A DNA stretch of 64,000 nucleotides from Acidothermaceae bacterium (GTDB lineage: Bacteria; Actinomycetota; Actinomycetes; Acidothermales; Acidothermaceae): NCBI GenBank assembly GCA_036501485.1, contig DASYAG010000122.1, forward strand, positions 5,446 through 69,445, read 5' to 3'. Shown here piece after piece: positions 629-47,905 of the stretch (position 1 is its first letter; the number at the start of each line of letters is the position of its first letter). The notes under the pieces are model-generated. The model searched no databases and was not told where the DNA came from. It saw only the letters and a program-made list of their open reading frames with translations. The position numbers were made by a program, and so were the translations under genes.

Positions 629-844
629 GCGGGAAGCCTCATCGAGTTGTTCGGGGTCTGGTTGTTCGGTGCAGCACAGCGCGCAACAGGGTTGCGAGTC
701 GAGCGACCACTCAGAGTACCCAAACGGCAGGTTCGGCGTCCAACCAGGCTGGCCGAGACCGCTCCCGCGAGGCATGCTGGACTCCACCGGTACGGATCGA
801 CGGTCGAGACCCGGCTCCGTCTCCGTTCTGGGATCGGAGAGCTC

Positions 845-5101: not shown

Positions 5102-5185
5102 CAGACAACGCCGGACGGTCCCGCCCGGCGGCATACACCGATGCAGCTGAACTTCCCAGTCGGCTGTGGGCCTGGAGGTGGCGCG

Positions 5186-6181: not shown

Positions 6182-6252
6182 CAGCGCCAACGGGCGGGGG
6201 TGCCTGGCCGACGTGGGATCATGGTCAGGCATCCCCGACTTGAGAGAAGCGC

Positions 6253-8073: not shown

Positions 8074-8077
8074 CGGC

Positions 8078-8713
8078 GTGACGCAGGCGACGGTCGTGGC
8101 CGTGAACGTCGGACGCGGCAAGGCGATGCCGGGCAAGTCGGGGATGAGCTCGATCGACAAGCGCGGTGCGCAGGGCCGGGTCGCAGTACGCCGGCTGGGG
8201 CTGGACGGCGACTCGCAGATGGATACCGCGAACCATGGCGGCCCCGAGCAAGCTGTGTACGCCTACGCGATGGAAGACCTCGACGACTGGGCGGGTCTGC
8301 TTGATCGCGAACTGCGACCGGGGCAGTTCGGTGAGAATCTGTCGACCCGCGGCATCGACGTCACCGGCGCCTTGATTGGTGAGACGTGGCGTATCGGGAG
8401 CACCTTGCTTCAGGTCTCACGCCCGCGGTTCCCGTGCGTCGTTTTCCAGAACTGGCTCGAAGAGCCGCATTGGGTCAAGCGGTTCACCGACGACGGCCGA
8501 CCGGGCGCCTACTTCCGGGTGCTCGAGGAGGGCGACCTCGGTGCGGGCGACGACATCGTGATCCAGGACAGACCTGATCACGACGTCACTATTGGCCTGG
8601 TCTTTCGGGCGAGGACGACGGATCGCAGCCTGATCCCGCGGATGCTGGCCGCGCCCCAACTTCCGAAGGCCGACTACCAGTTCGCCGTGCGGTACGTCGA
8701 GGAGAACTCCTAG
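8078..8713 (+). CDS. MOSC domain-containing protein (YiiM-like)
   Basis: GLDGDSQMDTANHGGPEQAVYAY, GQFGENL and the RPRFPC cysteine motif are present. Confidence 0.8.
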   Translation: MTQATVVAVNVGRGKAMPGKSGMSSIDKRGAQGRVAVRRLGLDGDSQMDTANHGGPEQAVYAYAMEDLDDWAGLLDRELRPGQFGENLSTRGIDVTGALIGETWRIGSTLLQVSRPRFPCVVFQNWLEEPHWVKRFTDDGRPGAYFRVLEEGDLGAGDDIVIQDRPDHDVTIGLVFRARTTDRSLIPRMLAAPQLPKADYQFAVRYVEENS

Positions 8714-10456: not shown

Positions 10457-10466
10457 CTTTCGTCCG

Positions 10467-10488
10467 CCGCAAGGTGCTGCTCTTGCGG
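10467..10488 (+). terminator. Hairpin downstream of hemW
   Basis: CCGCAAG-gtgctgct-CTTGCGG begins 11 nt after the hemW stop codon. No T-tract. Confidence 0.35.
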
Positions 10489-10555
10489 TCCGGACCTGAA
10501 GCGACTACACACCACTCTGAAACGATCACGTGGCAAACAACTTCCGGGGGAAAAC

Positions 10556-29316: not shown

Positions 29317-29363
29317 CCGTAGCCGCGGTCGGCCGTTCGAGGCTGCGCCAAATCCTGCGCATC

Positions 29364-29384
29364 TACTGCCCTCCAGGGGCAGTA
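29364..29384. terminator. Hairpin between convergent glyS and the immunity gene
   Basis: TACTGCCC-tccag-GGGCAGTA, 48 nt after the glyS stop codon. It could act in both directions. Confidence 0.4.
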
Positions 29385-29496
29385 AGTGCGCAAGATCTCG
29401 GCGTCGGAGTCGTTACCCGACCCTCATCATCCGTACGCCAAGACCGCTGATGCTCTACGCGTCCAAGAACGCGCGCTGACCAACAACACTCCGCAG

Positions 29497-29844
29497 CTAG
29501 TTTCGCCGACGGGTCTCGACGGGTACTGCGGAGTCCGGCTGCGTATTCCGTCCTGCTTCAAGTTCTCTGAGCAAGCCGGTTAGCCAAGCGCGCATGGTGA
29601 CGTTCTCGCGCGATGGATCGTAGTAAAGCGAGTAGTCCTCATCGATCGTTTGATGGAACTCGTCATCCGCCATGGGCTCTTGTACAAGCTCCCTGAGTTC
29701 CTCGATGACCTGATGGATCAGGATTGGATCAGCCGTGTCGAGAAAATCCATAGCGACATCGAGGCGTGACTCTGCGTCGAGCTGCCAGTCGGGATGGAAG
29801 TAGGAAAGGAATAATTCTTGGACGGCGAAGTAGCGGCGCTTCAC
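29497..29844 (-). CDS. CdiI-like immunity protein (family labelled contact-dependent growth inhibition system immunity protein)
   Basis: The GTG start overlaps the toxin stop (GTGA). The motif FLSYFHPDWQLD...YYDP...W resembles the FGAYFHQDW...-type immunity family as I recall it. The protein is acidic, 115 aa, and its gene is visibly lower in GC than its neighbours. Confidence 0.6.
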   Translation of the reverse strand: MKRRYFAVQELFLSYFHPDWQLDAESRLDVAMDFLDTADPILIHQVIEELRELVQEPMADDEFHQTIDEDYSLYYDPSRENVTMRAWLTGLLRELEAGRNTQPDSAVPVETRRRN

Positions 29845-31211
29845 GGGGCAACAAATCCCGTCAACATGTAATAGCCCAGCGGAGCCGAGGGTTGTGCTCG
29901 TAGGACCGCGACGGCGGTGGTGCCGTCGACTGATTCTCCTCTTCCTGCGAAGAGAACCCGGCCCACGGGTCTGTCAAAGGTTGCGGCGAACCTAAACTTC
30001 GCGCCGGCCTTCGCGCCCGCCAGCCAGACCCGGATCTCGCGTCCATTCGCCCATTGTAGATCCGCGAGGGCCTGCTCGGCCGTCGCACGGTCGGTGAAGG
30101 TCGATGCCTCGGTAACGCCCCGTGAAGCGAGACTGTCGTCGCCAACGCCGACATGAGTCAACACATGTCCGCCGAGCGCGTCATTTGCTCCGAGGCCGCC
30201 CGGATACGCGAGCCCGGAGCCTTTTGACGCCTGGAGCGCATGCGCGGCTTCGCCGTTGCTGGCGTGGACGATTGTGCTTGGTTTGATTAGGCGCGATTCG
30301 CGGAGTAGTGGTGCCGCTTTGGTGACGAGCTTGCCTCCTCCGGCTGGTGCGAAGCTCAGCGCGTCGACGCCCACCGAAGTCCACGAACCCTTGCCGGTTG
30401 CAGCAAGCGCAGTGTCGGCCATTCCTGCTGCGACCGAGCTGACCAGCGACACGGTCTCCAGTGCCGCTGCTGCAGCTTCCAGTGGCGGGAATGCGACGCC
30501 AGCGACCGCGAGAATCAGTGCCGCAGCACCGGCCAACGCCGATACAACGGTGCCGATCTTCGACACTTCGCGCAGTGTCTGGGTCCAATGGGTGGATGCC
30601 CAATGACCAACGGAGTGCGTGACGTGGTGGAACCACGACTGGTTGTGGATGCCGACGTGTGACGCCTGCTGCAACGCGGCCGCCGCAATACGCGCGGCCT
30701 GCTGCTGTTGCTCGTGCGCGTCGTCGTTCGATGCGACCGCTCTCTTGAGATCCGCGGCAGCCTCGTCGATGGACGCCTCGTAGCGCGTTGCAGTTAGAGG
30801 CGGTGGAAGTAGTCCGGTTGTGCGCGCGACAGTAGTAGCAGAAGCATCGCGGGCCGCAGCCGCTGCGTGCGCGGCAACAGCGGACGCAAGCTCGGCACTC
30901 GCGCGATCAGCTGCTGCGATTGCAGATGTTGACTGGTCTTGTGCGTCGGCGAGTGTGCGCGCGTAGGAGCCCAGCGCACGTCCTGCTGCCGCATAGGACA
31001 CGTTCGCTTTGTCGAGTGACGGCGGTAGCGACGCGGTGCGGACGTGGGCGGAAACAGCGGCCGCGCCTGTCCACGAGTCATCGCCAGCCGCAAGTGCGCG
31101 TAGTCGGCTCGCAATGTTCGCAACATCCAACGCGATTGACTCGAGTGTGCGACCGGCAGCTGAAACAGCCATTGGATCGCCGGCGATCGGATCGAGAACA
31201 TCAACAGGCAC
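29841..31211 (-). CDS. Polymorphic toxin candidate: WxG helical N-terminal domain, hydrophobic central segment, RNase-A-like (CdiA-CT type) C-terminal domain
   Basis: W47-T-G49 lies in an Ala-rich helical N-terminus. A hydrophobic stretch spans aa 219-272. The C-terminus GGHVLTHVGVGDDSLASR...STFTDRATAEQAL...YYMLTGFVAP resembles the GHT(I/L)xRHVGK...L(T/S)xYP pattern of bacterial RNase-A-like toxin domains. An immunity-like gene follows. Confidence 0.6.
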   Translation of the reverse strand: MPVDVLDPIAGDPMAVSAAGRTLESIALDVANIASRLRALAAGDDSWTGAAAVSAHVRTASLPPSLDKANVSYAAAGRALGSYARTLADAQDQSTSAIAAADRASAELASAVAAHAAAAARDASATTVARTTGLLPPPLTATRYEASIDEAAADLKRAVASNDDAHEQQQQAARIAAAALQQASHVGIHNQSWFHHVTHSVGHWASTHWTQTLREVSKIGTVVSALAGAAALILAVAGVAFPPLEAAAAALETVSLVSSVAAGMADTALAATGKGSWTSVGVDALSFAPAGGGKLVTKAAPLLRESRLIKPSTIVHASNGEAAHALQASKGSGLAYPGGLGANDALGGHVLTHVGVGDDSLASRGVTEASTFTDRATAEQALADLQWANGREIRVWLAGAKAGAKFRFAATFDRPVGRVLFAGRGESVDGTTAVAVLRAQPSAPLGYYMLTGFVAP

Positions 31212-31275
31212 AGCGAGAAGTTAGCTGTTCGTCAACCCCGCAGCTGTTGAAGTGGCCACGCCTGTGGACAACGCA

Positions 31276-31947
31276 TCAGTAGTGCAACTCGAGACTCTGA
31301 GCCATCGTGTCGAACAGTTCGGTCATTATCCGGGCATATGGAGGGCACGTAGAAGTGAACGTCACCACGACATGCGCACCACAGCCGAACAACGGCACGA
31401 TGTATTGCACGACGATCCCGTCGTTCTCGACGCAAAGTCGCACCACCGCGCCGACGAATGGCAGCGTCACGACCCCGGCGTTGGCACCGGTCCAGATGGG
31501 GTCACCGTCAATGACGGCTACTAGCGCGACGCACCGTTCGGCCACAGACGGGTTCCGCTCACCGGGAAATACCACCGTGTCGACCTCACAGATTTGCATC
31601 ACGACGGTTGCGACTAGCGCGCCATACTTGGTGTCCTCGATGACCCTCGACGCGCAGTAGAAAGCGCCGGCGTTGTTGGCGCGAGTGGTTAGGCGATCGA
31701 GCAAGGCGATGAGCGGGATGGCGTCGGGTGCCAATGCCCGCGAGCGGACTATCGCCCGTCGAACTGCACGGCGGATCGACGTGTGCCGAGTGCTGGCATC
31801 GAGGTCGAGCTCGATCCAATTGCCCGGCGTGACGATGCTCGCCTTCGCCAGGGGGCGCGGCGCCAGCGGCCCCAGTAGTTCGATCCTCTGCGCCGGCGGA
31901 TCGGAGGGCTGCCACCCCAACCCCTCGTCGTCCGGACTGATCGTCAT
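31276..31947 (-). CDS. Hypothetical protein of the toxin locus (no recognisable family)
   Basis: 223-aa ORF whose ATGA start overlaps the upstream small gene. It has no TM helix or signal peptide by eye, and looks like a mixed alpha/beta, Val-rich protein. Confidence 0.55.
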   Translation of the reverse strand: MTISPDDEGLGWQPSDPPAQRIELLGPLAPRPLAKASIVTPGNWIELDLDASTRHTSIRRAVRRAIVRSRALAPDAIPLIALLDRLTTRANNAGAFYCASRVIEDTKYGALVATVVMQICEVDTVVFPGERNPSVAERCVALVAVIDGDPIWTGANAGVVTLPFVGAVVRLCVENDGIVVQYIVPLFGCGAHVVVTFTSTCPPYARIMTELFDTMAQSLELHY

Positions 31948-32234
31948 TGCATTGCTGCTGCGAGGTCGCCGTCAGTGGAGCTGTAGATCTGAGACGCCTG
32001 GGTGAGCAGATCCGAGAGCTGCCCGACGTCCGCACAGATTTGAGCCCGACCGTCGTGCCAGCCGGTGACGAAGTGGTGCAAGGCGCCCGCGACCACGTCT
32101 GAACCGAGCGCCGGCCCAACATCGACGCCGAGGTCTGCGGTCAGCGAGAGGTCGTCGCGGACCCGGCCCACGGCACAGGCGAGCAAGGCAAGAGAAGCGG
32201 GCGTGACAACAAATCCCCGCGCGGCGTCCGGCAC
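31944..32234 (-). CDS. Small helical WXG100/EspC-like protein with C-terminal YxxxD motif
   Basis: 96 aa, first gene of the locus. FVVTPASL...HHFVTGW...LLTQASQIYSSTDGDLAAA follows the layout of EspC/DUF2580-type T7SS substrates. Y84-S-S-T-D88 is a YxxxD/E export motif. Confidence 0.5.
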   Translation of the reverse strand: MPDAARGFVVTPASLALLACAVGRVRDDLSLTADLGVDVGPALGSDVVAGALHHFVTGWHDGRAQICADVGQLSDLLTQASQIYSSTDGDLAAAMQ

Positions 32235-32378
32235 GTAAGTCCCCCCAAGAAGTAGGGGCCGACGCTAGCCACAAACAGCCCCGAACGAGCCAAAGAACCG
32301 GCAGCCTGTGGACAACTGGGCGATCGGTAGGATCAGAACCGCCGACCACACGAATTTCACCCGCGAGGAGCGTTCCCA

Positions 32379-35069
32379 GTGCCGAAGTATGTGTACGACT
32401 TCAGCGAAGGCAACCGAGACATGAAGGACCTTCTCGGCGGCAAGGGCGCGAACCTCGCCGAGATGACCAACATCGGGCTTCCGGTGCCTCCCGGCTTCAT
32501 CATCACGACGCAGGCGTGCCGCACCTATCTCGAGAGCGGCGATGCGCCGGTCGAGATGGAAGACGAGATCAGCGAGCACCTCGCCAGCCTCGAGAAGGCC
32601 ATGGGCAAGACCCTCGGCGACGCCGACGATCCGCTGCTCGTCTCGGTGCGATCCGGCGCGAAGTTCTCGATGCCCGGAATGATGGACACCGTCCTGAACA
32701 TCGGCCTGAACGACCAGAGCGTGAACGGCCTTGCGAAGCAGGGCGGCAACGACCGGTTCGCCTGGGACTCTTACCGCCGGTTGCTCTCGATGTTCGGCAA
32801 GACAGTGCTCGGGGCCGACGGCGAGTTGTTCGAGCACGCGCTCGACGAACTGAAGACGAGCCGCAACACCAAGAACGACCTCGACCTCGACGCCGCCGAC
32901 TTCCAGGCGTTGGTCGAGACCTACAAAGGCATCATCCGCGACCACGCCGGCCGCGAGTTCCCGCAAGACTCCCGCGAGCAGCTCGATCTCGCCGTCCGCG
33001 CCGTTTTTGATTCCTGGAACGGCGATCGCGCCCGCCTTTACCGTCGCCAGGAGCGCATTCCGGCCGACCTCGGCACCGCCGTCAACATCGTCGCGATGGT
33101 GTTCGGCAACATCAGCGCCGAGTCGGGCACCGGTGTCGCCTTCACCCGCGACCCCGGATCGGGCGATCAGGGCATCTACGGCGACTACCTCGAGAACGCT
33201 CAGGGCGAAGACGTCGTCGCCGGGATCCGCAACACCGTGCCGCTGGCCGACCTCGAGACGATCGACAAGCCCGCCTACGACGAGTTGCTCGGCATCATGA
33301 GCAAGCTCGAGAAGCACTACAAGGACCTCTGCGACATCGAGTTCACCATCGAGAACAACAAGCTCTGGATGCTGCAGACCCGCGTCGGCAAGCGCACAGC
33401 GGGCGCAGCTTTCCGTATCGCGACGCAGCTTGTCGACGAGGGCCTGATCGACATGAACGAGGCACTCCAGCGGGTTACGGGCGCGCAACTCGCGCAGCTG
33501 ATGTTCCCGAAGTTCGACGAAGACGCGAAGAAGATGAAGATCACCAAGGCCGTCAACGCGTCACCCGGTGCGGCGGTCGGCAAGGTCGTGTTCGACTCGG
33601 TCGTCGCGGCAGAGTGGGCCGCCAAGGGCGAGGACGTCATCCTCGTCCGTCGCGAGACCAACCCCGATGACCTGCCGGGCATGATCGCCGCCAAGGGCAT
33701 CTTGACCGAGCGCGGGGGCAAGACGTCGCACGCGGCCGTCGTCGCACGCGGCATGGGCAAGACCTGCGTATCGGGCGCCGAGCAGATCAGCGTCGACCTC
33801 AAGACCCGTCAGTTCACCGGCCCGAATGGCGAGGTCGTCAAGGAAGGCGACGTCATCTCGATCGATGGCACCTCGGGCATGGTCTACCTCGGTGAGGTTC
33901 CGGTCGTTCCTAGCCCGGTCGTGCAGTACTTCGAAGGCACCATCAGGGCGGACGCCGACCCGCTGGTCGCCGCGGTCCACCGCATCCTCGTACACGCAGA
34001 CTCAAAGCGGCGCCTCGGCGTCGAAGCGAACGCCGACACCCCCGAGGACGCCGAGCGCGCGCGTCGTTTCGGCGGCGAAGGCATTGGCCTGTGTCGTACC
34101 GAGCACATGTTCCTCGGTGAGCGTCGCAAGAACGTCGAGCGACTGATCCTGGCTAACGGCGAAGAGGAGCAGAAGGCAGCACTGGCCGAACTGCTTCCGT
34201 TGCAGCGCACCGACTTCATCGGCATCTTCGACGCGATGGACGGCTTGCCTGTAACGGTCCGCCTTATCGACCCGCCGCTGCACGAGTTCTTGCCCGACAT
34301 CACCGAGCTCACCGTCAAGATCGCCGTCGCCGAGGCGAAGGGCGAGAAGGTCGCTGACAAGGATCGGGTGCTGCTCGAGGCGGTGCGTCGACTGCACGAG
34401 CAGAACCCGATGCTCGGGCTTCGCGGCGTCCGCCTCGGGCTTGTCATTCCTGGGCTCTTTGCCTTGCAGGTAAGGGCAATTGCCGAAGCGGCCGCGCATC
34501 TGAAGAAGCTCGGCAAGAACCCGGTTCCGGAGATCATGGTTCCGCTGGTTGGTGCGGTGCAGGAGCTCGAGATCATTCGCGAGGAAGCGTTGGGCATTCT
34601 GGCTGACGTCGCGAAAGAGACCGGCGTCGAGGTGCACACGCTGATCGGCACGATGATCGAAGTGCCGCGCGCGGCGTTGACCGCCGGCCAGATTGCCGAA
34701 GCTGCTGACTTCTTCAGCTTCGGCACCAACGACCTCACGCAGATGGGCTGGGGCTTCTCGCGCGACGACGTCGAAGGCGCATTCTTCGGTCGCTACATGG
34801 ACCTCGGCATCTTCGGAGTCTCACCGTTCGAGACCCTAGACCGTGACGGCATCGGCCGGTTGGTGCGCATCGCCGTCGAGGAGGGTCGCGCGAGCAACCC
34901 GAACCTGCGGATCGGGATCTGCGGTGAGCACGGCGGCGACCCCGACTCAATCCACTTCTGCGACGAGGTCGGGCTCGACTACGTCTCGTGCTCGCCGTTC
35001 CGGATCCCGGTCGCCCGCCTCGAAGCCGGTCGCGCCGCTCTAGAGACGGCGGGTTCCGACACGCGCTGA
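32379..35069 (+). CDS. ppdK: Pyruvate, phosphate dikinase
   Basis: GGKGANLAEM, the phosphohistidine motif GGKTSHAAVVARGMG and the C-terminal FFSFGTNDLTQM...CGEHGGDP are present over the full 896 aa. The GTG start is preceded by GAGGAG. Confidence 0.95.
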   Translation: MPKYVYDFSEGNRDMKDLLGGKGANLAEMTNIGLPVPPGFIITTQACRTYLESGDAPVEMEDEISEHLASLEKAMGKTLGDADDPLLVSVRSGAKFSMPGMMDTVLNIGLNDQSVNGLAKQGGNDRFAWDSYRRLLSMFGKTVLGADGELFEHALDELKTSRNTKNDLDLDAADFQALVETYKGIIRDHAGREFPQDSREQLDLAVRAVFDSWNGDRARLYRRQERIPADLGTAVNIVAMVFGNISAESGTGVAFTRDPGSGDQGIYGDYLENAQGEDVVAGIRNTVPLADLETIDKPAYDELLGIMSKLEKHYKDLCDIEFTIENNKLWMLQTRVGKRTAGAAFRIATQLVDEGLIDMNEALQRVTGAQLAQLMFPKFDEDAKKMKITKAVNASPGAAVGKVVFDSVVAAEWAAKGEDVILVRRETNPDDLPGMIAAKGILTERGGKTSHAAVVARGMGKTCVSGAEQISVDLKTRQFTGPNGEVVKEGDVISIDGTSGMVYLGEVPVVPSPVVQYFEGTIRADADPLVAAVHRILVHADSKRRLGVEANADTPEDAERARRFGGEGIGLCRTEHMFLGERRKNVERLILANGEEEQKAALAELLPLQRTDFIGIFDAMDGLPVTVRLIDPPLHEFLPDITELTVKIAVAEAKGEKVADKDRVLLEAVRRLHEQNPMLGLRGVRLGLVIPGLFALQVRAIAEAAAHLKKLGKNPVPEIMVPLVGAVQELEIIREEALGILADVAKETGVEVHTLIGTMIEVPRAALTAGQIAEAADFFSFGTNDLTQMGWGFSRDDVEGAFFGRYMDLGIFGVSPFETLDRDGIGRLVRIAVEEGRASNPNLRIGICGEHGGDPDSIHFCDEVGLDYVSCSPFRIPVARLEAGRAALETAGSDTR

Positions 35070-35129
35070 GACCAGCCCGGACGCCGAGGGGTGGCCGCCC
35101 GTACGGCCGACGCGGGATACTGGCGAGCT

Positions 35130-35810
35130 ATGGGAGACGTTCCGAATTTCCTTCCCAGTGCGCAGGGACTCCACTACGCCAACTCGTGGCCGTCCGCGCC
35201 GGTCGTCGAGGTTCCGACCCCGTTCGGCAACGTCGATATCGGCGATGCCAAGCATGGTCTGTGCGGCGGCATGGCCTACGCCGTCCGCGATCTGTTCGAA
35301 GCACATGCCGACCCGCCGCCGCAGACCGCCAATCCGCTGCCAACATCGCCCGCATTTCACTTCATCACCACACGATTGATCGACAGTTTCGACCTGCCCG
35401 ACGGCGTCGCGAAGTACTACGAGTGGATGAACTTGCCGACCGGCGACGAGTTCTTCGTGCATGGCACGTCGCGGCGAACCATCGAAGTTTCGATGCCTTT
35501 CATCCGTGCGACGATCGATGCCGGACACCCGTGTCCGCTGGGCGTTGTGTGCGTACATTCGGCCAACCCGCAGGACCTCGGCGAGAATCACCAGGTGCTC
35601 GCGTACGGCTATGCAGATACGACCTCGACAACCACTCTGCGGCTCTACGACTGCAATCATCCAGACGACGACGGCGTGACGATCGCGTTCGATCACACGA
35701 GCCCGCACCACTCGACGAAGTTCAACTACTCCTACGACGACCACACCGTGATTGGATTCTTCCCGAGCCAGTACACGCCAAAGGATCCGTCGCCGCTCTT
35801 CCAGCTGTGA
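35130..35810 (+). CDS. Papain-fold-like hypothetical protein (candidate Cys-His-Asp/Asn triad)
   Basis: GLCGGMAYAV (candidate nucleophile), NHQVLAYGY (candidate His) and LYDCNHPDDD are spaced as in C39/BtrH-like cysteine peptidases or amidases. I see no signal peptide. Confidence 0.5.
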   Translation: MGDVPNFLPSAQGLHYANSWPSAPVVEVPTPFGNVDIGDAKHGLCGGMAYAVRDLFEAHADPPPQTANPLPTSPAFHFITTRLIDSFDLPDGVAKYYEWMNLPTGDEFFVHGTSRRTIEVSMPFIRATIDAGHPCPLGVVCVHSANPQDLGENHQVLAYGYADTTSTTTLRLYDCNHPDDDGVTIAFDHTSPHHSTKFNYSYDDHTVIGFFPSQYTPKDPSPLFQL

Positions 35811-35875
35811 CGCCGCGGAACTGAACGGGGGACCTCATCGCACTCGTACTGGTCACCGGCCCCGCCACGACCACG

Positions 35876-36133
35876 GTGTTTGCTGTCGCTTCGGCGAGCC
35901 CCTCGCCGTCCGGCCCGGTATCGACGTCCGTACCGGTTGGGTCGCCGTCATTGATCGGGCCCCCGTCACCGATCAGTGCTGCACCGGCGACTTCGGAACT
36001 CACGGTCTTCCCAACGTCTTCCGCGCACCCGGATTTCGTTACTGGCGCCATTTTCGTCGTGATCTTCGCGCTGCTACTCACGTTCGCCTACGCCATCCGC
36101 GTGCTGCGGCGTCGGCGGCACCGATGGGACTGA
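35876..36133 (+). CDS. Possible small Pro/Ser-rich tail-anchored membrane protein
   Basis: 85 aa, GTG start, with a C-terminal TM helix (AIFVVIFALLLTFAYAI) followed by RVLRRRRHRWD. Third-position GC is moderate. A competing minus-strand ORF 35722..36081 looks less protein-like. Confidence 0.3.
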   Translation: MFAVASASPSPSGPVSTSVPVGSPSLIGPPSPISAAPATSELTVFPTSSAHPDFVTGAIFVVIFALLLTFAYAIRVLRRRRHRWD

Positions 36134-36167
36134 AGCGGACGACGGTGGGCCGGGGTAGCGTCGAGAC

Positions 36168-42469: not shown

Positions 42470-42542
42470 TCCTGCGTAGCTCAATTGGCAGAGCAGCCGG
42501 CTGTTAACCGGCAGGTTATAGGTTCGAGTCCTATCGCAGGAG
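42470..42542 (+). tRNA. tRNA-Asn (anticodon GTT)
   Basis: Acceptor stem TCCTGCG/CGCAGGA, D-arm AGCTCAATTGGCAGAGC, anticodon loop CTGTTAA and T-arm GGTTCGAGTCC. CCA is not encoded. Confidence 0.9.
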
Positions 42543-43050
42543 CAAATCCGCAGGTCAGGCCCCATCCGGCCGACCGACCAAGGGCGTTTCGCCCGACCGC
42601 ACACGCCTCTCAGCGCCGACATCGCAGACGTAGCAAGTGGCACCCATCGAAGCCGCCGCGATCGTTGGCGCGTGGTTCGCATCCTTCCTCGGAATGCGCA
42701 AGCTGACGCAGGCACCGATCGCGCCGACTGCCAATGCGACCATGTGCTCTCTGCCGGCAAGATCGGGATGAAGTGCGAACGCGCCAACCACGGCGGCAAT
42801 CAGCAGCCCACCCAACCGCGGGCAGCGCATCGCTATGGCGATGTAGATCGCCAGACCACACGTCGCAGCAGATGGGCCAGTATCAACCGCACGCGCTGAA
42901 TGCGGACTGGCAAGGATCGACTCCCCTTAACGAATTCTTCATGTAATCCGGGGAACATGCAGGCGACTGTCATGTGCGACGCGGCCGCAGGCTCGGTGGG
43001 CTCAGCGCGTGCGCAGGGCCTGTGAACGTGCCGGAGTCGAGGTGGTCGAC

Positions 43051-43706: not shown

Positions 43707-45203
43707 CTACGGCGCGCACGTAAGGTCGGGTGCTGCAATCGCCGTGGTCGTTGCTGGAGCCGCGGCGGTGCTGATGGCGGTGAAGTCGGTGCCTAGGGTC
43801 AGCACTACGCCAGCCGTTGTTGACGAGACGAGCGCTGCTTGCGGCACGTGGGTTTGTAGCAATTGGGCAGCTGCGAGATCGGCGTCGTCGTAACGGATTG
43901 TCGTGACCGGGGTGCTTGTCGCGTCGCCGACCGTGCCGACGTGAAAACCGAGTACCTGCAACGCAACCGCTGTCGTGCGCGCGAGCCCTGATCGCCCAGT
44001 GCCGTTTTCGACGTTAATAAGAACATCGGGCGGGGACGCCGGGGGCGCTGATGCTGAGGCCGACGCTGACGTTGAGCTGTCATTCTCGAAAGTCGCGAAA
44101 AGTGCGGCCATCGCGGAGGGGTCGAGCTCGACGTTGTCTTGGGGTTGATTGCCGTAAACACTGCTTGTTGCCGAGTAGTTCGAATTCAGGATCGGTGCTG
44201 TGAGAAAGCTGACGTGGCTGGCGTCGAGGTGGCTGAACCGGGACGCAAGTTTGCGCATGTCACCTAACGAAAGGCCGGAGTCGACTGTCAGCGATTTCGT
44301 CGCCTGATTGAGGAATTCGGTGAGCTTCAACGGATTAACCAGAGTGCCGGCTGAGAGAACCTTCTGCAGCATCACCGACAGGAAGTACTCCTGGTCCTTG
44401 ATCCGCTCGAGGTCCTGGTTCGGGAAGGATTCGCGGTCGCGCACCAGAGCCAGTGCTTGGACGCCGTTGATGTGATGCTCACCAGCCGTGAGAAAGTCTC
44501 CAGAGTTGGTGTCGTGACGAGTGGTCGCGACGCAAACGTCGATACCGCCCAGGGCGTTGACCATTCCCTGGAAGCCAGGAAAGTTCACTGAGGCGAAATG
44601 GTCGATGTGCAGGCCAGTCAGCTGTTCCATGGTGGCCACAAGCAGGGGTGCGCCGCCAATCGAGAACGCGGCATTAAGTTTGGCGTAGACCGCCGCGTGC
44701 GACACGTTCTTGGCGTCAATGTAGGCGGGTAGCTGAACCCACGAATCACGTGGGAACGACACGACCGTCGCCTTGGCCGTCCCGGCCGGGATATGCACCA
44801 GCATCACGACGTCCGACCGTTGGCCTGTGACGAACGCCGAGCTGCCCGGAGCGACGTTGTACGCCTGGCCGCCGGCGAAGTCGCGGCTATCCGAGCCCAT
44901 CAGCAAGAAGTTCTCCGAACCGGGCACAGGTGTTGGCGCGGCAGTAGGAGTAGCCGTCGACGATGCTGTGGCGGCGCTGGTGCCGACGTTGGCTGAGGGT
45001 GACGGCGTCGCAGCGAAACGGATGTTGACGCGATGAATCTGATGGAAGAGCAGCGAGCCGGTAACAACGACGCCCACGATCACCACGACGCAAAGCACTG
45101 CGACAATGGAAAGTGCTTGCCGCCACCGAAGCCGACGCCACCATCGACCCGCAGCACTCGCTACGGACCCGGTTGATGGAGGCCCGGCAGGTGGAACCGT
45201 CAT
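43707..45203 (-). CDS. LCP (LytR-CpsA-Psr) family protein with LytR_C-like tail
   Basis: Motifs NFLLMGSDSR, RSDVVMLVHIP, VSFPRD, INAAFS-type segment and a C-terminal LytR_C-like domain. Start set at ATG 45203 (GGAGGA 9 nt upstream); the 45204..45344 extension has low third-position GC. Confidence 0.85.
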   Translation of the reverse strand: MTVPPAGPPSTGSVASAAGRWWRRLRWRQALSIVAVLCVVVIVGVVVTGSLLFHQIHRVNIRFAATPSPSANVGTSAATASSTATPTAAPTPVPGSENFLLMGSDSRDFAGGQAYNVAPGSSAFVTGQRSDVVMLVHIPAGTAKATVVSFPRDSWVQLPAYIDAKNVSHAAVYAKLNAAFSIGGAPLLVATMEQLTGLHIDHFASVNFPGFQGMVNALGGIDVCVATTRHDTNSGDFLTAGEHHINGVQALALVRDRESFPNQDLERIKDQEYFLSVMLQKVLSAGTLVNPLKLTEFLNQATKSLTVDSGLSLGDMRKLASRFSHLDASHVSFLTAPILNSNYSATSSVYGNQPQDNVELDPSAMAALFATFENDSSTSASASASAPPASPPDVLINVENGTGRSGLARTTAVALQVLGFHVGTVGDATSTPVTTIRYDDADLAAAQLLQTHVPQAALVSSTTAGVVLTLGTDFTAISTAAAPATTTAIAAPDLTCAP

Positions 45204-45603
45204 CGAAGCTACGTCCTCCAAACCACTCTTTGTAGGCGCGGCCCATTGCTTCGGTCTGGAGGAGTCTCGCAGGCAGACCTTACGTAGGGCTGTCGGTGCG
45301 CGAGGACGTCGATGCCGTCGTACCAAAGGATGCGGTCGTGCCAATGTATGGATAGACAGGATCGCCTAACTGCATGGAGATACTAGTGACGCCGTCGCCT
45401 GAGGTCGCCTACGGGTTGGTATTCGCTGCGTTGCGTCAAGGCCGTGGCTGGGAAGTATCAAGTGATGTAAATCAGCGCCTCACACAGACGTGACGGACTT
45501 GAGGCCCCGCGATTTAGCACCCCAAGTAGCTGACGATTTCATGACAGAGAAACAGGTCCCGGTACGTGTAACGCTATCCGTGTGAGTCGCGTAGGTTCGA
45601 CGC

Positions 45604-46566
45604 ATGGACGGCGACGAGCTCCGAAGGGGGGACCCGCGGAGCATCGACCGGCGTACCGTCCTCAGGGCTGGCGTTGCGGCCGCAGTTGCCGGCATAGCGG
45701 GCGGCAGTCTGGTCAGTTGTACGGCGAGTGCTAAGCGGGCCACTCGCGCGACCGCGGATCCCAACGCTGCCGACGCCTCGGCTATCGCGGTACCGACCGC
45801 CGCGGCCACCAGTGCGACGGGTCGTGCTGTGCCGAGCGCGCCGCCGTCAACGCCGGGCGCGGCGCAGTTAGCCTCGCCGTCAACGCCACAGTTGGCTTCG
45901 TTGGCACCGAGTCAGTCTGCGTCAACGCAGGCGGCGGCTTCTGAGGTCCGACCTGGCGCTCCCGCCGTGGAGATCACTCACGGGCCAATAACTGCGCACG
46001 GCGTAGCTCTGACGTTCCATGGCGCGGGCGATGTGACGCTCGCGACCCGGCTGCTGGCGGAACTCGAGACGGCAGGCGCGCGCGCGACCATTTTGGCCGT
46101 CGGGCAGTGGCTCGATCAGGAGCCGGCGATGGCGAAGCGAATCCTTGCCGGCGGTCATGAACTGGGCAACCACACCTACCGTCATCTGACCATGCCCCCA
46201 TTGTCGGAGGCGGTCGATGAGTCGGAGATCACTCGCTGCGCAGATGTTCTGCGCCGGTTGACGGGTTCAGCGGGCCGTTGGTTTCGGCCGTCGGGCACAG
46301 TGCACGCAACTGCGGCAATTCTCGAGGCGGCAGGTCGTGCCGGGTATGCGACGAGTTTGTCCTATGACGTCGACCCTTCGGACTACGCCGATCCTGGATC
46401 GACGGCGGTTACCACGCGAGTGTTAACGGCCACGCGGCCTGGTTCAATCGTGTCGCTGCATTTGGGTCACCTCGGTACCGTGCAGGCGATGCCCGCGATA
46501 CTTGACGGCCTTCGCTCACGTGGTTTGGCTGCGGTGACGATGTCGGACTTGATGGTTGAGAGTTGA
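45604..46566 (+). CDS. Polysaccharide deacetylase (NodB-type), Tat-signal lipoprotein
   Basis: Has a twin-arginine motif DRRTVLRAG and the lipobox LVSC. NodB motifs are LTFHGAG, ATILAVGQW and GHELGNHTYRH. Confidence 0.8.
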   Translation: MDGDELRRGDPRSIDRRTVLRAGVAAAVAGIAGGSLVSCTASAKRATRATADPNAADASAIAVPTAAATSATGRAVPSAPPSTPGAAQLASPSTPQLASLAPSQSASTQAAASEVRPGAPAVEITHGPITAHGVALTFHGAGDVTLATRLLAELETAGARATILAVGQWLDQEPAMAKRILAGGHELGNHTYRHLTMPPLSEAVDESEITRCADVLRRLTGSAGRWFRPSGTVHATAAILEAAGRAGYATSLSYDVDPSDYADPGSTAVTTRVLTATRPGSIVSLHLGHLGTVQAMPAILDGLRSRGLAAVTMSDLMVES

Positions 46567-46579
46567 TGTGCTCGGCGAG

Positions 46580-47905
46580 ATGCGGATGAGGTCTCACGGA
46601 TCCAGAGCAGTTGCTGCGCTGTGCGTTATCGCGGCGCTCGGATTGTCCGGCTGCACGGCGCGCGACCACGACGGCTTCGCTCCTCGCATCGGTGCGGGAC
46701 CCATAGCAGCGCACACGACCGCAGGCGTCCCGGACGCTGCATCCTCGAGCATGACGCCTGAGGGCGCCACCTCCCCAGCGGCCGATCCGGTAGCCTCCGG
46801 CACGCGCACAGACACAATGCCCGAATCAAGTCCGCTGGTAATATCGACGTCTACCTCGCCCATGCCGGCCGTCGCAAATCCATTGCCGGGGATGCCCGTG
46901 GCGGACGACGCCGCGAACATTTACAACCATGACGGCGCCAACATGCTCAGCCCGGTGGTCGCTGGGTTCCCGAACCTCGTCTACGTGCCGAACAGCAATA
47001 GCAACACCGTCGACGTCATCAACCCGGTGACGGGCGCGATCGTCGAGCATTTCGCGGTGCCGACGCAGCCGCAGCACGTGGTTCCGTCGTACAACTTGAA
47101 GACACTATGGGTGAACAGCGACGTCGGTAACGCGCTGACACCGATCAATCCCGCCACTGGGCTGCCAGGCAAACCGATCGCGGTCGCTGACCCGTACAAC
47201 CTCTACTTCACGCCCGACGGTAAATATGCGCTCGTGATGGCCGAGCGGTTGCACCGCATCGACTGGCTCGACCCGACAACGATGGTGTTGATTCACACCA
47301 CCCCTGTTCCGTGTTCCGGGGTTAACCACGCCGACTTCTCCGCAGACGGCCGTTACTTCATCGTCAGCTGCGAGTTCGACGGTCGGGTGTTGAAGATCGA
47401 CACGCTGACCAAGCAGATAGTCGGTGTCATGCGTTTGACGCCAGATGCGATGCCGCAAGACGTGAAGGTTTCACCTGACGGGAAAGTGTTCTACATCGCC
47501 GACATGCAAAGCAACGGCGTGTGGGAGATCGACGGCGACACGTTCAAGAAGATCGGCTTCTTGCCGACCGGAAAGGGCGCCCACGGCCTTTACATCAGTC
47601 GGGACGCATCCGTGATGTACGTCACCAACCGCGGCGAGGGGTCAATCTCACTTGTCGACCTGGCAACTCGAACGGTCGAGACCACGTGGAAGATTCCTGG
47701 TGGCGGGTCGCCCGACATGGGTGGCCTTTCGGTCGATGGCATGCAGTTGTGGGTGTCAGGTCGATACAACGGGGTGGTCTACGAGATAAGTACGGTGGAC
47801 GGCCACTTGATCAAGGAGATCAGCGTTGGTAGCGGACCACACGGACTTTGCGTGTACCCCCAACCAGGCCGGTATTCGTTGGGTCACACTGGCGTTTTCC
47901 GCTAG
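46580..47905 (+). CDS. YVTN-family beta-propeller lipoprotein (YncE-like)
   Basis: Lipoprotein signal MRMRSHGSRAVAALCVIAALGLSGC. Repeated ...VYV.N..SNTV.VI....... and ...P.G..FYIAD-type blades follow. The start is ambiguous (46556, 46580 or 46586). Confidence 0.75.
   Translation: MRMRSHGSRAVAALCVIAALGLSGCTARDHDGFAPRIGAGPIAAHTTAGVPDAASSSMTPEGATSPAADPVASGTRTDTMPESSPLVISTSTSPMPAVANPLPGMPVADDAANIYNHDGANMLSPVVAGFPNLVYVPNSNSNTVDVINPVTGAIVEHFAVPTQPQHVVPSYNLKTLWVNSDVGNALTPINPATGLPGKPIAVADPYNLYFTPDGKYALVMAERLHRIDWLDPTTMVLIHTTPVPCSGVNHADFSADGRYFIVSCEFDGRVLKIDTLTKQIVGVMRLTPDAMPQDVKVSPDGKVFYIADMQSNGVWEIDGDTFKKIGFLPTGKGAHGLYISRDASVMYVTNRGEGSISLVDLATRTVETTWKIPGGGSPDMGGLSVDGMQLWVSGRYNGVVYEISTVDGHLIKEISVGSGPHGLCVYPQPGRYSLGHTGVFR

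Follow-up and report, generated by a model that had tools for sequence, protein, structure and literature searches.

Loci in which an RNase toxin is exported with a small partner protein and is accompanied by its antidote are already known. RNase A-like domains on WXG100-type T7SS effectors were noted by Batot in 2017 (PMC5435912), and loci in which toxins with diverse payloads are associated with Tap proteins are reported to be widespread across Actinomycetota (PMC13444075). Chaperones of the Eag group have likewise been described (PMC12881460), as have the phage-encoded ESX-secreted toxins, or PEST (PMC10654092). The original prediction for the DNA analysed here, which knew of no characterised actinobacterial equivalent, has been overtaken by the WXG100-RNase A effectors, by the PEST cassettes and by the EatA/TapA1/TapA2/EatI locus (PMC13444075).

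The locus described in the present work lies in a 64-kb stretch of DNA (the window). Its best explanation, to which we assign a probability of roughly 0.72, is a polymorphic toxin-immunity locus, chromosomal in location and adapted to type VII secretion, in which the second gene would encode a chaperone or adaptor and expression would be driven from two promoters.

Four genes between glyS and ppdK

Four minus-strand genes, A-B-C-D, occupy the 3062-nt interval between the end of glyS (29316) and the start of ppdK (32379), and their open reading frames reproduce exactly the coordinates, lengths, 64-nt gap and two 4-nt overlaps originally predicted:

31944..32234, minus strand: gene A, open reading frame of 96 aa
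31944-31947: overlap of A and B, 4 nt
31276..31947, minus strand: gene B, open reading frame of 223 aa
31212-31275: gap between B and C, 64 nt
29841..31211, minus strand: gene C (toxin), open reading frame of 456 aa
29841-29844: overlap of C and D, 4 nt
29497..29844, minus strand: gene D (immunity), open reading frame of 115 aa

The overlaps couple A and B translationally, and D to the toxin gene. Pfam profile searches, which the original prediction had proposed, returned toxin, immunity and T7SS_signal matches, all of them exceeding the Pfam cut-offs and supporting the predicted toxin-immunity module of type VII secretion style. The profiles found in C are PF21725 T7SS_signal (E 6e-9; residues 9-178) and PF18431 RNAse_A_bac (E 9e-16; 59.2 bits against a cut-off of 27), while D matches PF18593 CdiI_2 (E 2.5e-14; 54.2 bits against a cut-off of 26.7). 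C is a polymorphic toxin whose N-terminal T7SS targeting domain is followed by a hydrophobic hairpin, then by a linker and finally by an RNase A-like toxin domain, and the NCBI name of an identical protein is "RNase A-like domain-containing protein". By its profile match, D is the corresponding CdiI_2-family immunity protein of the RNase payload; a direct sequence search of D against the 5e3e immunity chain gave no match. The features of A and of the toxin are as follows:

32046..32063, minus strand: GWHDGR motif, A residues 58-63, at the predicted hairpin turn
31971..31985, minus strand: YSSTD (YxxxD export motif), A residues 84-88
30642..31211, minus strand: targeting domain, C residues 1-190, elongated, helical and PPE-like
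31065..31073, minus strand: WxG (W47-T48-G49), turn between toxin helices 1 and 2
30405..30587, minus strand: hydrophobic hairpin, C residues 209-269, two helices joined by a PPLE turn (242-245)
29844..30251, minus strand: exchangeable payload, C residues 321-456, with the conserved-to-variable junction at about residue 320
29853..30164, minus strand: bacterial RNase A-like domain (PF18431), C residues 350-453

Gene A is predicted to encode a PE/EspC-like helical-hairpin partner that bears the YxxxD half of a bipartite T7SS signal. Of its 56 homologues, 52 touch PF10824 T7SS_ESX_EspC (best E 5e-6), 25 touch WXG100 and 4 touch PE, and the family profile aligns over its full length to PE25 (4w4k, E 0.02) with YxxxD/E in register. 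Across the same 56 homologues Y84 is invariant and D88 is kept in at least 90%, and in the GWHDGR motif W59, D61, G62 and R63 are invariant and G58 is found in at least 90%. The WxG of the toxin lies in the sequence SWTG (residues 46-49), of which W47 and G49 do not vary across an alignment of 53 toxins, so that both motifs of the original prediction, YxxxD in the 96-aa protein and WxG in the toxin, are present and conserved in their families.

The helices of the targeting domain (13-42, 50-132 and 141-186) are modelled by AF2 with pLDDT >90, and the best meaningful structural match of the modelled domain is PPE4 in the PE5-PPE4-EspG3 complex (6uuj_E, prob 1.00, TM 0.59 target-normalised). The hairpin is the most conserved block of the toxin (0.82-0.86 identity), its PPLE turn is invariant, and its 19-residue Kyte-Doolittle mean reaches 2.39 over residues 216-251; its two helices (209-239 and 245-269) are modelled at low confidence. 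A hydrophobic hairpin is also present in the related loci L005, L018, L020 and L021, and this segment is a candidate membrane-insertion or translocation hairpin.

The RNase domain aligns end to end, over all 114 residues, with the Yersinia kristensenii CdiA-CT 5e3e_B (E 6e-8), and H353, R364 and T451 correspond to His175, Arg186 and Thr276 of this reference RNase. The activity-relevant Tyr278 is replaced by F453, which raises the question of whether the allele is weakened or inactive and the locus a decaying or repurposed copy, since the Tyr278Ala mutant of the reference enzyme is nearly inactive and a role in proton transfer has been proposed for this residue (PMC5435912). We consider this unlikely, because the histidine, arginine and threonine are conserved, the domain scores well over its Pfam cut-off, the reading frame is intact, and the immunity gene is retained and translationally coupled; moreover, the one C-terminus compared from a related RNase-type toxin (P0158) has the same T-G-F ending, which points to a variant tolerated within the family rather than to decay.

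Accessory protein B, regulation and the proposed route of export

The 223-aa protein, originally taken for an orphan, belongs to a family of 342 clusters, with 90 close homologues. Profile searches gave it no Pfam or NCBIfam match, DUF1795 and EspG (PF14011) among the Pfam families, and B founds an unannotated family. Its AF2 model (pLDDT 85, pTM 0.79; residues 1-26 disordered) is confident and shows a PsbP/Mog1-like alpha/beta fold resembling that of the T6SS Eag chaperones. The Foldseek matches, a coherent group of PsbP/Mog1-fold proteins, comprise 3lyd, PsbP, Mog1, EagT6 (6xrf), DcrB, Mtc28, LpqN, Tsi3 and SciW, with the EagT6-Tse6 and SciW-Rhs1 TMD complexes among them, and are weak in absolute terms (TM 0.31-0.55, E 5e-4 to 2e-2); no EspG chain occurs among the top 50. 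This fold also serves the immunity protein Tsi3 and envelope lipoproteins.

From the modelled fold and the analogy with Eag proteins, we propose that B is a chaperone or adaptor for the conserved N-module of the toxin. The association of B with the N-module and not with the type of payload (rho 0.33 versus 0.05) speaks for this proposal. B-family genes adjoin T7SS_signal proteins in three divergent arrangements, those of the Acidothermaceae clade, of L005, where B is coupled to both A and the toxin, and of L015, where two B genes have a partner that lacks a strong hydrophobic segment. In L020 and L021 the hairpin-bearing toxins have neither A nor B within 11-15 kb, and these two loci together with the hairpin-poor partner in L015 indicate that B is not tied one-to-one to the hairpin. 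The rapid evolution of B, compared with the near invariance of the hairpin that is its proposed target, is an observation that counts against the chaperone proposal.

It is conceivable, although improbable, that B is not a chaperone, and instead provides immunity against a membrane-damaging hairpin module or has an unrelated role and merely shares the operon. Such a role would be compatible with the same association of B with the N-module rather than with the payload type, with the inclusion of Tsi3 in its fold family, with the hairpin toxins that occur without an adjacent B, and with a fast rate of change, which is seen in conflict proteins more than in chaperones with housekeeping functions, B being about 60% identical between genomes whose glyS is 99% identical (dN 0.23-0.27, omega 0.24). 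However, known immunity proteins against membrane-acting toxins carry a signal peptide or membrane segment, and B carries neither; gene B comes before the toxin gene and is translationally coupled to that of the export partner A, in contrast to the immunity genes of this family, which come after the toxin; and its top partner-bound structural matches are chaperone-TMD complexes.

The chaperone or adaptor proposal for B forms part of a mechanism in which A, through its YxxxD motif, would pair with the PPE-like helical domain and WxG of the toxin, so that the pair would present a bipartite signal to an EccC-type T7SS ATPase. The cytoplasmic B would most likely act like the Eag chaperones of T6SS effectors and shield the hairpin (residues 209-269) until its export, or alternatively would hold the helical domain of the toxin, as EspG does with PPE proteins. 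After export, the hairpin would enter the membrane of a competitor and help the RNase into the cytoplasm, where it would degrade the competitor's RNA, with D protecting sibling cells.

No T7SS core gene (EccC, EccB, EccD or MycP) occurs in the window or in the other loci retrieved, and the case for T7SS export therefore depends on the features of the substrate alone. This result, the word "putative" in the Pfam name of the T7SS signal, and the membrane-like hairpin of the toxin would all fit a system that makes no use of T7SS, in which the WXG/YxxxD-like helices are a structural scaffold only and the toxin stays in the producer membrane or acts intracellularly, in the manner of toxin-antitoxin or abortive infection systems. 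We regard such a system as doubtful, given that an invariant WxG and YxxxD on a PE/PPE-like pair are the defining bipartite T7SS signal, that payload polymorphism and orphan immunity genes are a hallmark of exported competition toxins, that T7SSa is described as widespread in Actinomycetota (PMC11217815), and that analogous actinobacterial toxins are ESX-4 dependent (PMC13444075).

The candidate regulatory elements of the two promoters are as follows:

32304..32316, minus strand: copy 1 of the 13-mer GTTGTCCACAGGC, upstream of A, candidate regulator site of P_A
32262..32267, minus strand: TAGCGT, candidate -10 (TANNNT type) of P_A, followed by a 27-nt leader with a GGGGGG ribosome-binding site
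31260..31272, minus strand: copy 2 of GTTGTCCACAGGC, in the B-C gap 3 nt past the B stop, candidate regulator site of P_C
31218..31223, minus strand: TAACTT, candidate -10 of P_C, ending 6 nt before the GTG start of the toxin

Even with 2 mismatches allowed, the two copies are the only matches in the window, and both are exact. Upstream of A the 13-mer is conserved in all 10 loci and lies 48-50 nt before the -10 candidate. In the B-C gap it recurs in 8 of the 10 aligned loci, 49-51 nt before the -10 candidate, in some cases with 1-nt variants at the last two positions; the toxin genes of L020 and L021 have a variant, GTTTTCCACAG, upstream. We infer that TAGCGT, which falls within the block GGCTAGCGT conserved in the 10-locus alignment, is the -10 element of P_A. 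The distance from the P_C candidate to the GTG is 6 nt in all 8 loci that have the element, and 6-7 nt in L020 and L021. Because so few nucleotides separate this candidate from the start codon, the toxin-immunity mRNA is probably leaderless, and no Shine-Dalgarno sequence was found in the 64-nt gap. One promoter would thus serve A-B and the other a leaderless C-D transcript, and since both share an upstream GTTGTCCACAGG site, we propose that the system is co-regulated.

Residence at the junction and exchange of the payload

Every one of the 9 distinct related genome loci that have flanks carries the A-B-toxin cassette between ppdK and glyS, even in lineages with housekeeping proteins of just 81-93% identity. 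The original prediction had interpreted the four genes as an insertion, and had named synteny of the genes in relatives as evidence to the contrary; the glyS-ppdK junctions compared are syntenic, and the locus is an old fixture of a soil actinobacterial lineage, long resident beside glyS in Acidothermaceae-like Actinomycetes, and not a recent insertion. The recent change consists only of exchange of the payload/immunity tail, that is, the last ~136 residues of the toxin and the downstream gene. Identity to the window toxin drops from 0.66-0.86 to 0.15-0.23 past residue 320, and at least 10 unrelated C-termini are found on one N-module among 53 toxins, so that the toxin is a conserved 320-residue delivery module with an exchangeable C-terminal payload. 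Related genomes retain A, B and the N-module with differing payload/immunity pairs, as in the deaminase payload and SUKH-3 immunity gene of L020, and sometimes with leftover orphan immunity genes: CdiI_2 homologues of D follow an RNase-type toxin in L003 and are orphans in L009 and L010. The dN of the cassette (0.07-0.27) is well above that of the flanks (0.006-0.018), as expected for a conflict locus.

The predicted drop in GC is real but local, since it is found in D (0.557, in the lowest 0.1% of same-size windows of the 64 kb) and in a second dip at 31.05-31.5 kb (0.587), whereas the interval as a whole (0.632, against 0.6545 for the window) stands merely at the 13th percentile. GC3 is the sharper measure of composition here. 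It is 0.65 for C and 0.66 for D, compared with 0.815 +/- 0.04 for 23 reference genes (about -4 sd), and near normal for A (0.75) and B (0.78); the CAI of C (0.516) and of D (0.509) is under the reference minimum of 0.570. The toxin genes of relatives have a GC3 of 0.62-0.68, and low GC3 is therefore a trait of the toxin gene family. That the four genes arrived recently as an island of foreign composition within a housekeeping run, as their lack of a housekeeping role, the low GC3 and CAI of C and D, and a GC in D that is the lowest in its size class might suggest, is very improbable, given that all 9 flanked junctions are occupied, that the toxin remains beside glyS even in L020 and L021, that A and B are near normal in GC3, and that toxin genes of relatives are low in GC3 too.

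Comparison with described systems

The PEST cassettes of M. abscessus-chelonae prophages (PMC10654092) and the present locus have in common a predicted PE25/PPE41-like heterodimer between the partner and the toxin N-domain, and recombination of payloads. Those cassettes are prophage-borne, have no B-like gene and are described without a hydrophobic hairpin, whereas the present locus belongs to the chromosome of Acidothermaceae-like MAGs, where it occupies a fixed housekeeping junction; a search of 50,697 phage records returned no sequence relative of B or of the toxin N-module. The EatA-TapA1/TapA2-EatI locus of M. abscessus (PMC13444075), which encodes an ESX-4-secreted arabinanase, likewise has small helical accessory gene(s) upstream, an inhibitor downstream, and an elongated helical N-domain with T7SS motifs in the toxin. 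It differs in that EatA is a cell-wall enzyme and not a cytoplasm-acting RNase, EatI is a lipoprotein while the present immunity protein is cytoplasmic, two small Tap proteins stand in place of one small partner and a 223-aa alpha/beta protein, and the internal hydrophobic hairpin is a feature of the present toxin.

The parallel originally drawn with the LXG toxin-Lap1/Lap2 loci of Bacillota T7SSb (PMC10801868, PMC9600955) is fair in functional logic, as helical partners there complete the export signal of a polymorphic toxin whose immunity gene lies downstream. Membership of the locus in the LXG/Lap group was rejected, because profile search gave no LXG, DUF3130 or DUF3958 match; the present partner is PE/EspC-like, the N-domain is of the PPE-like Pfam T7SS_signal type, and the phylum, and presumably the T7SS subtype, differ. 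The mycobacterial PE-PPE-EspG complexes of ESX systems (6uuj, 4w4k) are approached in the alignment of A with PE25, in the closeness of the toxin N-domain model to PPE4, and in the third operon gene for a proposed non-secreted chaperone, which parallels EspG; B is not an EspG homologue, however, the PE/PPE sequence motifs are absent, and the PPE-like domain is fused to a toxin.

CdiA-CT/CdiI of Yersinia kristensenii (5e3e; PMC5435912) is homologous over the full length of the toxin domain, with His175, Arg186 and Thr276 kept, and the Pfam family of D is built on CdiI(Ykris), but delivery there is by the CdiA filament instead of a T7SS-type N-module, and Tyr278 is Phe here. The Eag (DUF1795) chaperones of T6SS prePAAR effectors (EagT6-Tse6, SciW-Rhs1; PMC12881460) belong to the Mog1/PsbP-like fold class predicted for B, and are similarly encoded as cytoplasmic, non-secreted accessory proteins beside an effector with hydrophobic helices and a cytoplasm-acting toxin domain. 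B differs from them in having no DUF1795 sequence match, a length of 223 aa as opposed to about 140, and an extra helical hairpin; the secretion system and phylum are other, no PAAR/prePAAR is present, and the hydrophobic hairpin of the toxin, whose binding by B is putative, is internal and not N-terminal. What is new in the present locus, relative to these systems, is the B family, the conserved hydrophobic hairpin of the toxin, and a 13-nt motif common to two promoters, with a toxin mRNA that is probably leaderless.

The four-gene locus and its predicted toxin-immunity pair

The arrangement of four minus-strand genes proposed in the original prediction is borne out exactly, with the ORF coordinates, the overlaps and the gap all matching. 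The cluster lies between the end of glyS at 29316 and the start of ppdK at 32379, within a run of housekeeping genes (leuA, recO, uppS and glyS on one side; ppdK, dgt and dnaG on the other), and is made up of the following features.

Genes of the cluster between glyS and ppdK
31944-32234, minus strand: gene A, partner protein of 96 aa
31276-31947, minus strand: gene B, accessory protein of 223 aa, overlapping A by 4 nt
Between B and C: a gap of 64 nt
29841-31211, minus strand: gene C, toxin of 456 aa
29497-29844, minus strand: gene D, immunity protein of 115 aa, its start overlapping the stop codon of C by 4 nt

The drop in GC content that had been noted for the cluster is real but local. Gene D, with a GC content of 0.557, falls in the lowest 0.1% among windows of the same size, and there is a second dip, to 0.587, at 31.05-31.5 kb, but the interval as a whole (0.632, compared with 0.6545 for the window) reaches only the 13th percentile. 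The third-position GC content (GC3) is 0.65 in C and 0.66 in D compared with 0.815 +/- 0.04 in 23 reference genes, and the codon adaptation index of both genes lies under the reference-gene minimum; GC3 is near normal in A (0.75) and B (0.78).

The interpretation of C and D as a toxin-immunity pair in the style of type VII secretion systems (T7SS) is supported by domain matches which all exceed their cut-offs. Residues 9-178 of C match PF21725, a putative T7SS secretion signal domain (E 6e-9, above the curated cut-off), residues 350-453 match PF18431 RNAse_A_bac, the bacterial CdiA-CT RNase A family (E 9e-16; 59.2 bits, cut-off 27), and D, which adjoins this RNase A-like toxin, matches the immunity family PF18593 CdiI_2 (E 2.5e-14; 54.2 bits, cut-off 26.7; profile positions 2-89 of 91). 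The NCBI name for a protein identical to C is “RNase A-like domain-containing protein”, and RNase A-like domains on WXG100-type putative T7SS effectors were already noted in 2017 (PMC5435912). The C-terminal 110 residues of the toxin align with all 114 residues of the Yersinia kristensenii CdiA domain 5e3e_B (E 6e-8); when D was searched against the PDB sequences, the immunity chain of 5e3e was not among the hits. The activity of the Y. kristensenii RNase toxin involves His175, Arg186, Thr276 and Tyr278 (PMC5435912), and when the mutagenesis primers of that study are placed onto the 5e3e_B alignment, the first three residues map to conserved counterparts (H353, R364 and T451, respectively) and Tyr278 maps to F453. 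The same T-G-F end is found in P0158, the sole related RNase-type toxin with a printed C-terminus. The phenylalanine at the Tyr278 position is a genuine caveat for the predicted catalytic competence of the toxin.

A search with toxin residues 1-331 returned 96 proteins of 392-456 aa, whose N-terminal parts are 84-93% identical to the window toxin and whose C-terminal annotations differ. When 53 toxins are aligned, their identity to that of the window lies at 0.66-0.86 as far as residue 320 and drops to 0.15-0.23 beyond it, so that a sharp junction separates the shared N-module from a C-terminal payload, residues 321-456 in the window toxin, which falls into at least 10 unrelated clusters. The RNase A payload is carried by 8 of the 53 toxins and the commonest payload type by 22; a Pfam scan of representatives of seven other clusters, the commonest type included, gave no payload match. 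The counterparts of window positions 29844-30251 compared here lie in proteins P0159-P0248, and they form a reservoir of uncharacterised toxin domains. The immunity gene changes with the payload: CdiI_2 accompanies RNase A in the window as it does in related locus L003, a YwqJ-type deaminase is followed by a SUKH-3 immunity gene in L020, and other payload types have different small ORFs next in line downstream. The L009 toxin, which is of the commonest type, has its own 95-aa ORF (10101-10388) behind it and then an orphan CdiI_2 gene (10385-10732) whose product is 65% identical to D, and L010, likewise with a non-RNase payload, has an orphan CdiI_2 58% identical to D; the window itself contains no orphan immunity gene. 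These orphans are leftovers of payload replacement, the standard footprint of displacement by recombination. A shared N-module with unrelated tails, an immunity gene that changes with the tail and orphan immunity genes are, as far as sequence comparison can tell, the marks of a polymorphic toxin system.

The 95-aa ORF that follows the commonest payload starts with MYECPVCKF and has no Pfam match; it may encode a zinc-ribbon-like immunity protein.

Protein A by itself gives only a weak match to DUF6278 (E 0.029), an identity which was set aside in favour of the signal from the family as a whole. Among 56 homologues of A, 52 touch PF10824 EspC (best E 5e-6), 25 WXG100 and 4 PE, matches which are all below the Pfam cut-offs yet consistent, and the family profile can be aligned end to end with PE25 (4w4k, E 0.02), the YxxxD/E motif falling in register. 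This motif is YSSTD at residues 84-88 of A, in which Y84 never varies and D88 is kept by at least 90% of the 56 homologues; a GWxDGR turn motif is likewise invariant. Residues 1-190 of the toxin are modelled with pLDDT above 90 as helices at 13-42, 50-132 (very long) and 141-186, the first two of which are joined by a WxG turn with invariant W47 and G49. The sole specific structural match of this domain is PPE4 in the PE5-PPE4-EspG3 complex (prob 1.00, TM 0.59 normalised to PPE4), the remaining matches being generic long-helix BAR domains. As in PE-PPE pairs, the small partner carries YxxxD and the large one WxG, and A and the toxin are predicted to form a heterodimer.

Because no T7SS core gene was found in the 64-kb window or in any fetched locus, the putative T7SS export of the toxin is read from its substrate features. 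The ORFs of the window are all at most 896 aa, the large ones being regulators, transporters and enzymes, and a 1417-aa ORF suspected to be EccC, which lies beside the B genes of locus L015, is in fact a Kelch/CarboxypepD_reg protein. T7SSa is described as widespread in Actinomycetota (PMC11217815); a search for literature on T7SS specific to Acidothermales found nothing.

Age and evolutionary rate of the cassette

The four genes are not a recent insertion, and the insertion reading of the original prediction does not survive comparison with related genomes, since the cassette occupies the ppdK/glyS junction in 9 of 9 distinct related loci with flanks (L001/L006, L002, L003/L011, L007, L009, L010, L012/L019, L013 and L014; L018 is a near-identical extra copy of L012/L019 from another assembly). 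The gene order in all of these loci is ppdK, A, B, toxin N-module, variable tail and glyS, and in some of the syntenic lineages the housekeeping proteins are just 81-93% identical to those of the window. In two more distant loci, L020 and L021, in which the toxin N-module is 53% identical, the toxin gene is located 2-3 kb from glyS with an isochorismatase gene upstream, HMM searches found neither A nor B within 11-15 kb, and ppdK is absent among the called genes. The low GC3 of the toxin gene recurs in relatives as well (0.68 in L001 and 0.62 in L002, compared with about 0.8 in their neighbours), and low GC3 as a mark of recent foreign origin was therefore rejected. The synteny of the nine loci, the arrangement in L020 and L021 and the recurrence of low GC3 together point to the toxin gene beside glyS as the oldest element and to the cassette tail as the only part that has recently been exchanged; the A-B adjacency is typical of a large clade.

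The N-module toxins near glyS at L020 4289-6072 and L021 5305-6555 both lie downstream of MarR, MFS and isochorismatase genes.

Substitution rates (Nei-Gojobori) against four clean close loci, L001, L007, L009 and L010
Flanks leuA, recO, glyS and ppdK: dN 0.006-0.025, dS 0.28-0.53, omega 0.01-0.05
A: dN 0.08-0.13, dS 0.64-0.81, omega 0.11-0.20
B, residues 35-223: dN 0.23-0.27, dS 0.95-1.11, omega about 0.24
Toxin N-module, residues 14-320: dN 0.065-0.079, dS 0.69-0.82, omega about 0.10

The cassette has evolved far faster than its flanks in these four comparisons. B is the fastest-evolving conserved gene of the locus, with a dN about 20 times that of the flanks at an omega of 0.24; between genomes that share 98-99% identity in glyS and ppdK, identity in B is down to about 60-67%. 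Such rates would fit a conflict locus shaped by deep allelic divergence or by exchange among relatives.

In M. tuberculosis, PPE38-40, plcABC and esxO/esxP lie between glyS (Rv2357c) and dgt (Rv2344c), and on the basis of this gene content the glyS-dgt interval, which corresponds to 29317-36167 in the window, may have housed genes for T7SS substrates repeatedly among the Actinomycetota.

Several features elsewhere in the window were recorded in the course of the analysis.

Further features of the window
536-2701, plus strand: fusion protein of 721 aa with GAF, histidine-kinase ATPase, receiver and LuxR (GerE) DNA-binding domains
35091-35810, plus strand: ORF of 239 aa directly after ppdK, containing GLCGGMAY, with no Pfam or NCBIfam match
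42470-42543, plus strand: tRNA-Asn
43707-45344, minus strand: LytR-CpsA-Psr protein
45604-46566: polysaccharide deacetylase
46556-47905: YNCE-like beta-propeller protein

Every related locus has the 239-aa ORF in this place (identity 75-93%, omega about 0.1), a degree of conservation which identifies it as a real gene. The tRNA-Asn gene is followed at 43-48 kb by a stretch of lower GC content (0.58-0.60) with few high-GC3 ORFs, which encodes cell-envelope proteins and may be an island integrated at the tRNA. The 721-aa fusion is an unusual all-in-one sensor-regulator architecture.

The accessory protein, the toxin hairpin and the shared candidate promoter motif

The 223-aa protein B had been called an orphan, a label that fails in view of its 90 close homologues and of the 342 clusters (E <= 1e-3), mostly full-length at 200-230 aa, recovered by a profile search. 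B itself has no Pfam match (E <= 1) and no NCBIfam match, ten distant members of its family that were tested contain no Pfam domain, and a search of the B profile against PDB sequences returned nothing meaningful. B is 100% identical to the hypothetical protein VGL75_17140 of an Acidothermaceae bacterium MAG, and soil metagenomes and MAGs are the source of nearly all homologues. Across 22 contig-paired loci, B identity follows that of the N-module (rho 0.33, p 5e-7) and not the payload type (rho 0.05, p 0.42), which indicates that B belongs to the delivery part of the system and is not a payload-specific immunity protein. Genes of the B family stand beside T7SS_signal-type proteins in three divergent layouts: that of the Acidothermaceae clade; that of L005, where the order is a WXG100 gene, an A-like gene, B and the toxin, with A-B and B-toxin overlaps of 4 nt each; and that of L015 (a Pseudonocardiales MAG, 5062-8558), where an A-like gene and a gene for a 445-aa WXG100/T7SS_signal protein accompany two tandem B genes. 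The neighbourhoods of distant B members are mostly contigs of 1-3 kb which end beside B.

The A-like protein of L015 has 269 aa with a long Gly-rich tail, and the 445-aa protein has a Pro-rich middle and no recognisable toxin domain.

The AlphaFold2 model of B (pLDDT 85, pTM 0.79), in which the N-terminal 26 residues are disordered, retrieves with Foldseek a coherent Mog1/PsbP-like set made up of 3lyd, an uncharacterised Jonesia protein (E 5.5e-4), PsbP/CyanoP, Mog1, DcrB, Mtc28, LpqN, Tsi3 and the T6SS chaperones EagT6, with the bound Tse6 transmembrane domain (E 3e-3, prob 1.0, TM 0.31/0.44), and SciW (E 2e-2). Since the TM-scores are modest (0.3-0.55), the match is a predicted fold-class assignment and not homology to any single family, and neither B nor the ten distant members belong to DUF1795 by sequence.

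The most conserved block of the toxin is a hydrophobic hairpin. The Kyte-Doolittle mean reaches 2.39 within residues 216-251, a weaker second segment spans 246-265, and an invariant PPLE turn connects the predicted helices (209-239 and 245-269); the hairpin is also present in L005, L018, L020 and L021. We know of no entry route into the target cell for T7SS toxins that act in the cytoplasm. In type VI secretion, Eag chaperones shield the transmembrane segments of effectors that act in the prey cytoplasm, and the shielded segments are proposed to take the toxin through the prey membrane (PMC12881460). By analogy, an RNase payload would meet the same topological problem as these effectors, and this problem, together with the Eag precedent, is the reason for preferring the reading in which the hairpin is kept shielded by B until export and afterwards serves as the means of entry into the target cell. 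In the boldest version, B would found a previously unrecognised family of actinobacterial chaperones for T7SS effectors, structurally Eag-like, which keeps the toxin hairpin soluble, and the hairpin would be the long-sought device that takes cytoplasm-acting toxins delivered by T7SS across the recipient membrane. A probability of roughly one in four is assigned to this boldest version; if it is true, two unrelated secretion systems have reached the same solution of a chaperone combined with a transmembrane domain.

A strict link between B and the hairpin is made less likely by the L015 protein that partners the two B genes, which lacks a strong hydrophobic segment, by the hairpin toxins of L020 and L021, which have no A or B nearby, and by the fast evolution of B compared with the nearly invariant hairpin. 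The alternative is that B holds the helical domain of the toxin in an EspG-like grip. A comparison of which toxin segment co-varies best with B, the helical tip or the hairpin, does not discriminate, as all segments give rho values of 0.27-0.51, which is consistent with shared descent. B itself has no match to the EspG family PF14011, and EspG chains are absent from its top 50 structural matches, although many such chains are present in the PDB.

A further feature of the locus is a candidate regulator-site sequence, GTTGTCCACAGG. Within the 64 kb of the window, the exact 13-mer GTTGTCCACAGGC is found only at 32304-32316 and at 31260-31272, each time on the operon strand, and allowing up to 2 mismatches yields no further match. 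By our own arithmetic, chance alone would give a 13-mer about 0.002 exact matches in the 128 kb that the two strands make up. The first copy is upstream of A, and the second begins 3 nt past the B stop codon, inside the 64-nt gap. The motif is found upstream of A in 10 of 10 aligned loci and in the B-C gap in 8 of the 10, with single-base variants in some, and it starts 48-51 nt before a TANNNT-type -10 candidate in every locus.

Candidate -10 elements
32262-32267: TAGCGT before A, followed by a leader of 22-45 nt (27 in the window) with a GGGGGG ribosome-binding site
31218-31223: before the toxin gene, TAACTT or TAGCTT across loci

The -10 candidate of the toxin gene ends exactly 6 nt before the GTG start codon in 8 of 8 loci, and no Shine-Dalgarno sequence precedes the gene; in L020 and L021 there is a variant, GTTTTCCACAG, with TAGCGT 6-7 nt ahead of the GTG. 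This arrangement would make the toxin-immunity transcript probably leaderless. The two copies of the motif suggest a shared regulator and, by extension, two co-regulated promoters, both of which are probably activator-dependent, because there is no conserved -35 element. A scan with the sigma-70 consensus found no promoter, terminator matches were at chance level, and no Rfam family was found in the interval.

Comparison with known systems

Antibacterial toxins of T7SS have been studied in depth in Bacillota; for Actinomycetota, to our knowledge, the first demonstration dates from 2026 and concerns mycobacteria only. The parallel drawn in the original prediction with the LXG-Lap loci of Firmicutes is fair as a functional analogy, but membership in that class fails, as none of the four proteins has a match to LXG (PF04740), DUF3130 or DUF3958 at E <= 1. 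The locus is an ordinary WXG-type polymorphic RNase toxin system, and the claims of insertion and novelty are not supported.

The interest of the locus is that one delivery module combined with at least 10 payloads in uncultured soil Acidothermaceae can be mined for new toxin and immunity folds. The conserved hairpin and the unannotated accessory family of 342 clusters provide a concrete hypothesis for toxin handling and entry, and the promoter motif that the two gene pairs share, being so sharply delimited, could reveal which regulator controls such systems. Should none of the inferred parts hold, the locus is still a new, if ordinary, representative of the WXG-type polymorphic toxins.

The suggestion that there is no characterised actinobacterial equivalent is contradicted by two systems, the cassettes for phage-encoded ESX-secreted toxins (PEST; PMC10654092) and the EatA locus (PMC13444075). 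PEST cassettes, found in Mycobacterium prophages, combine the gene of a polymorphic toxin with those of its WXG100 partner and its immunity protein, and toxicity and immunity have both been shown experimentally (PMC10654092). The gene logic is shared with the present locus, but PEST cassettes are prophage-borne, whereas the window locus is situated at a conserved chromosomal housekeeping junction; searches by tblastn with B and the toxin N-module against phage and plasmid collections found no relatives. EatA, which is secreted by ESX-4 and is encoded with TapA1/TapA2 and EatI, was reported in 2026, and Tap-associated toxin loci are stated to be widespread in Actinomycetota (PMC13444075). Neither account mentions an accessory protein resembling B or a toxin with a membrane hairpin, and the notable features of the conserved delivery module are the B family, the hydrophobic hairpin, and the shared promoter motif with its probably leaderless toxin mRNA.
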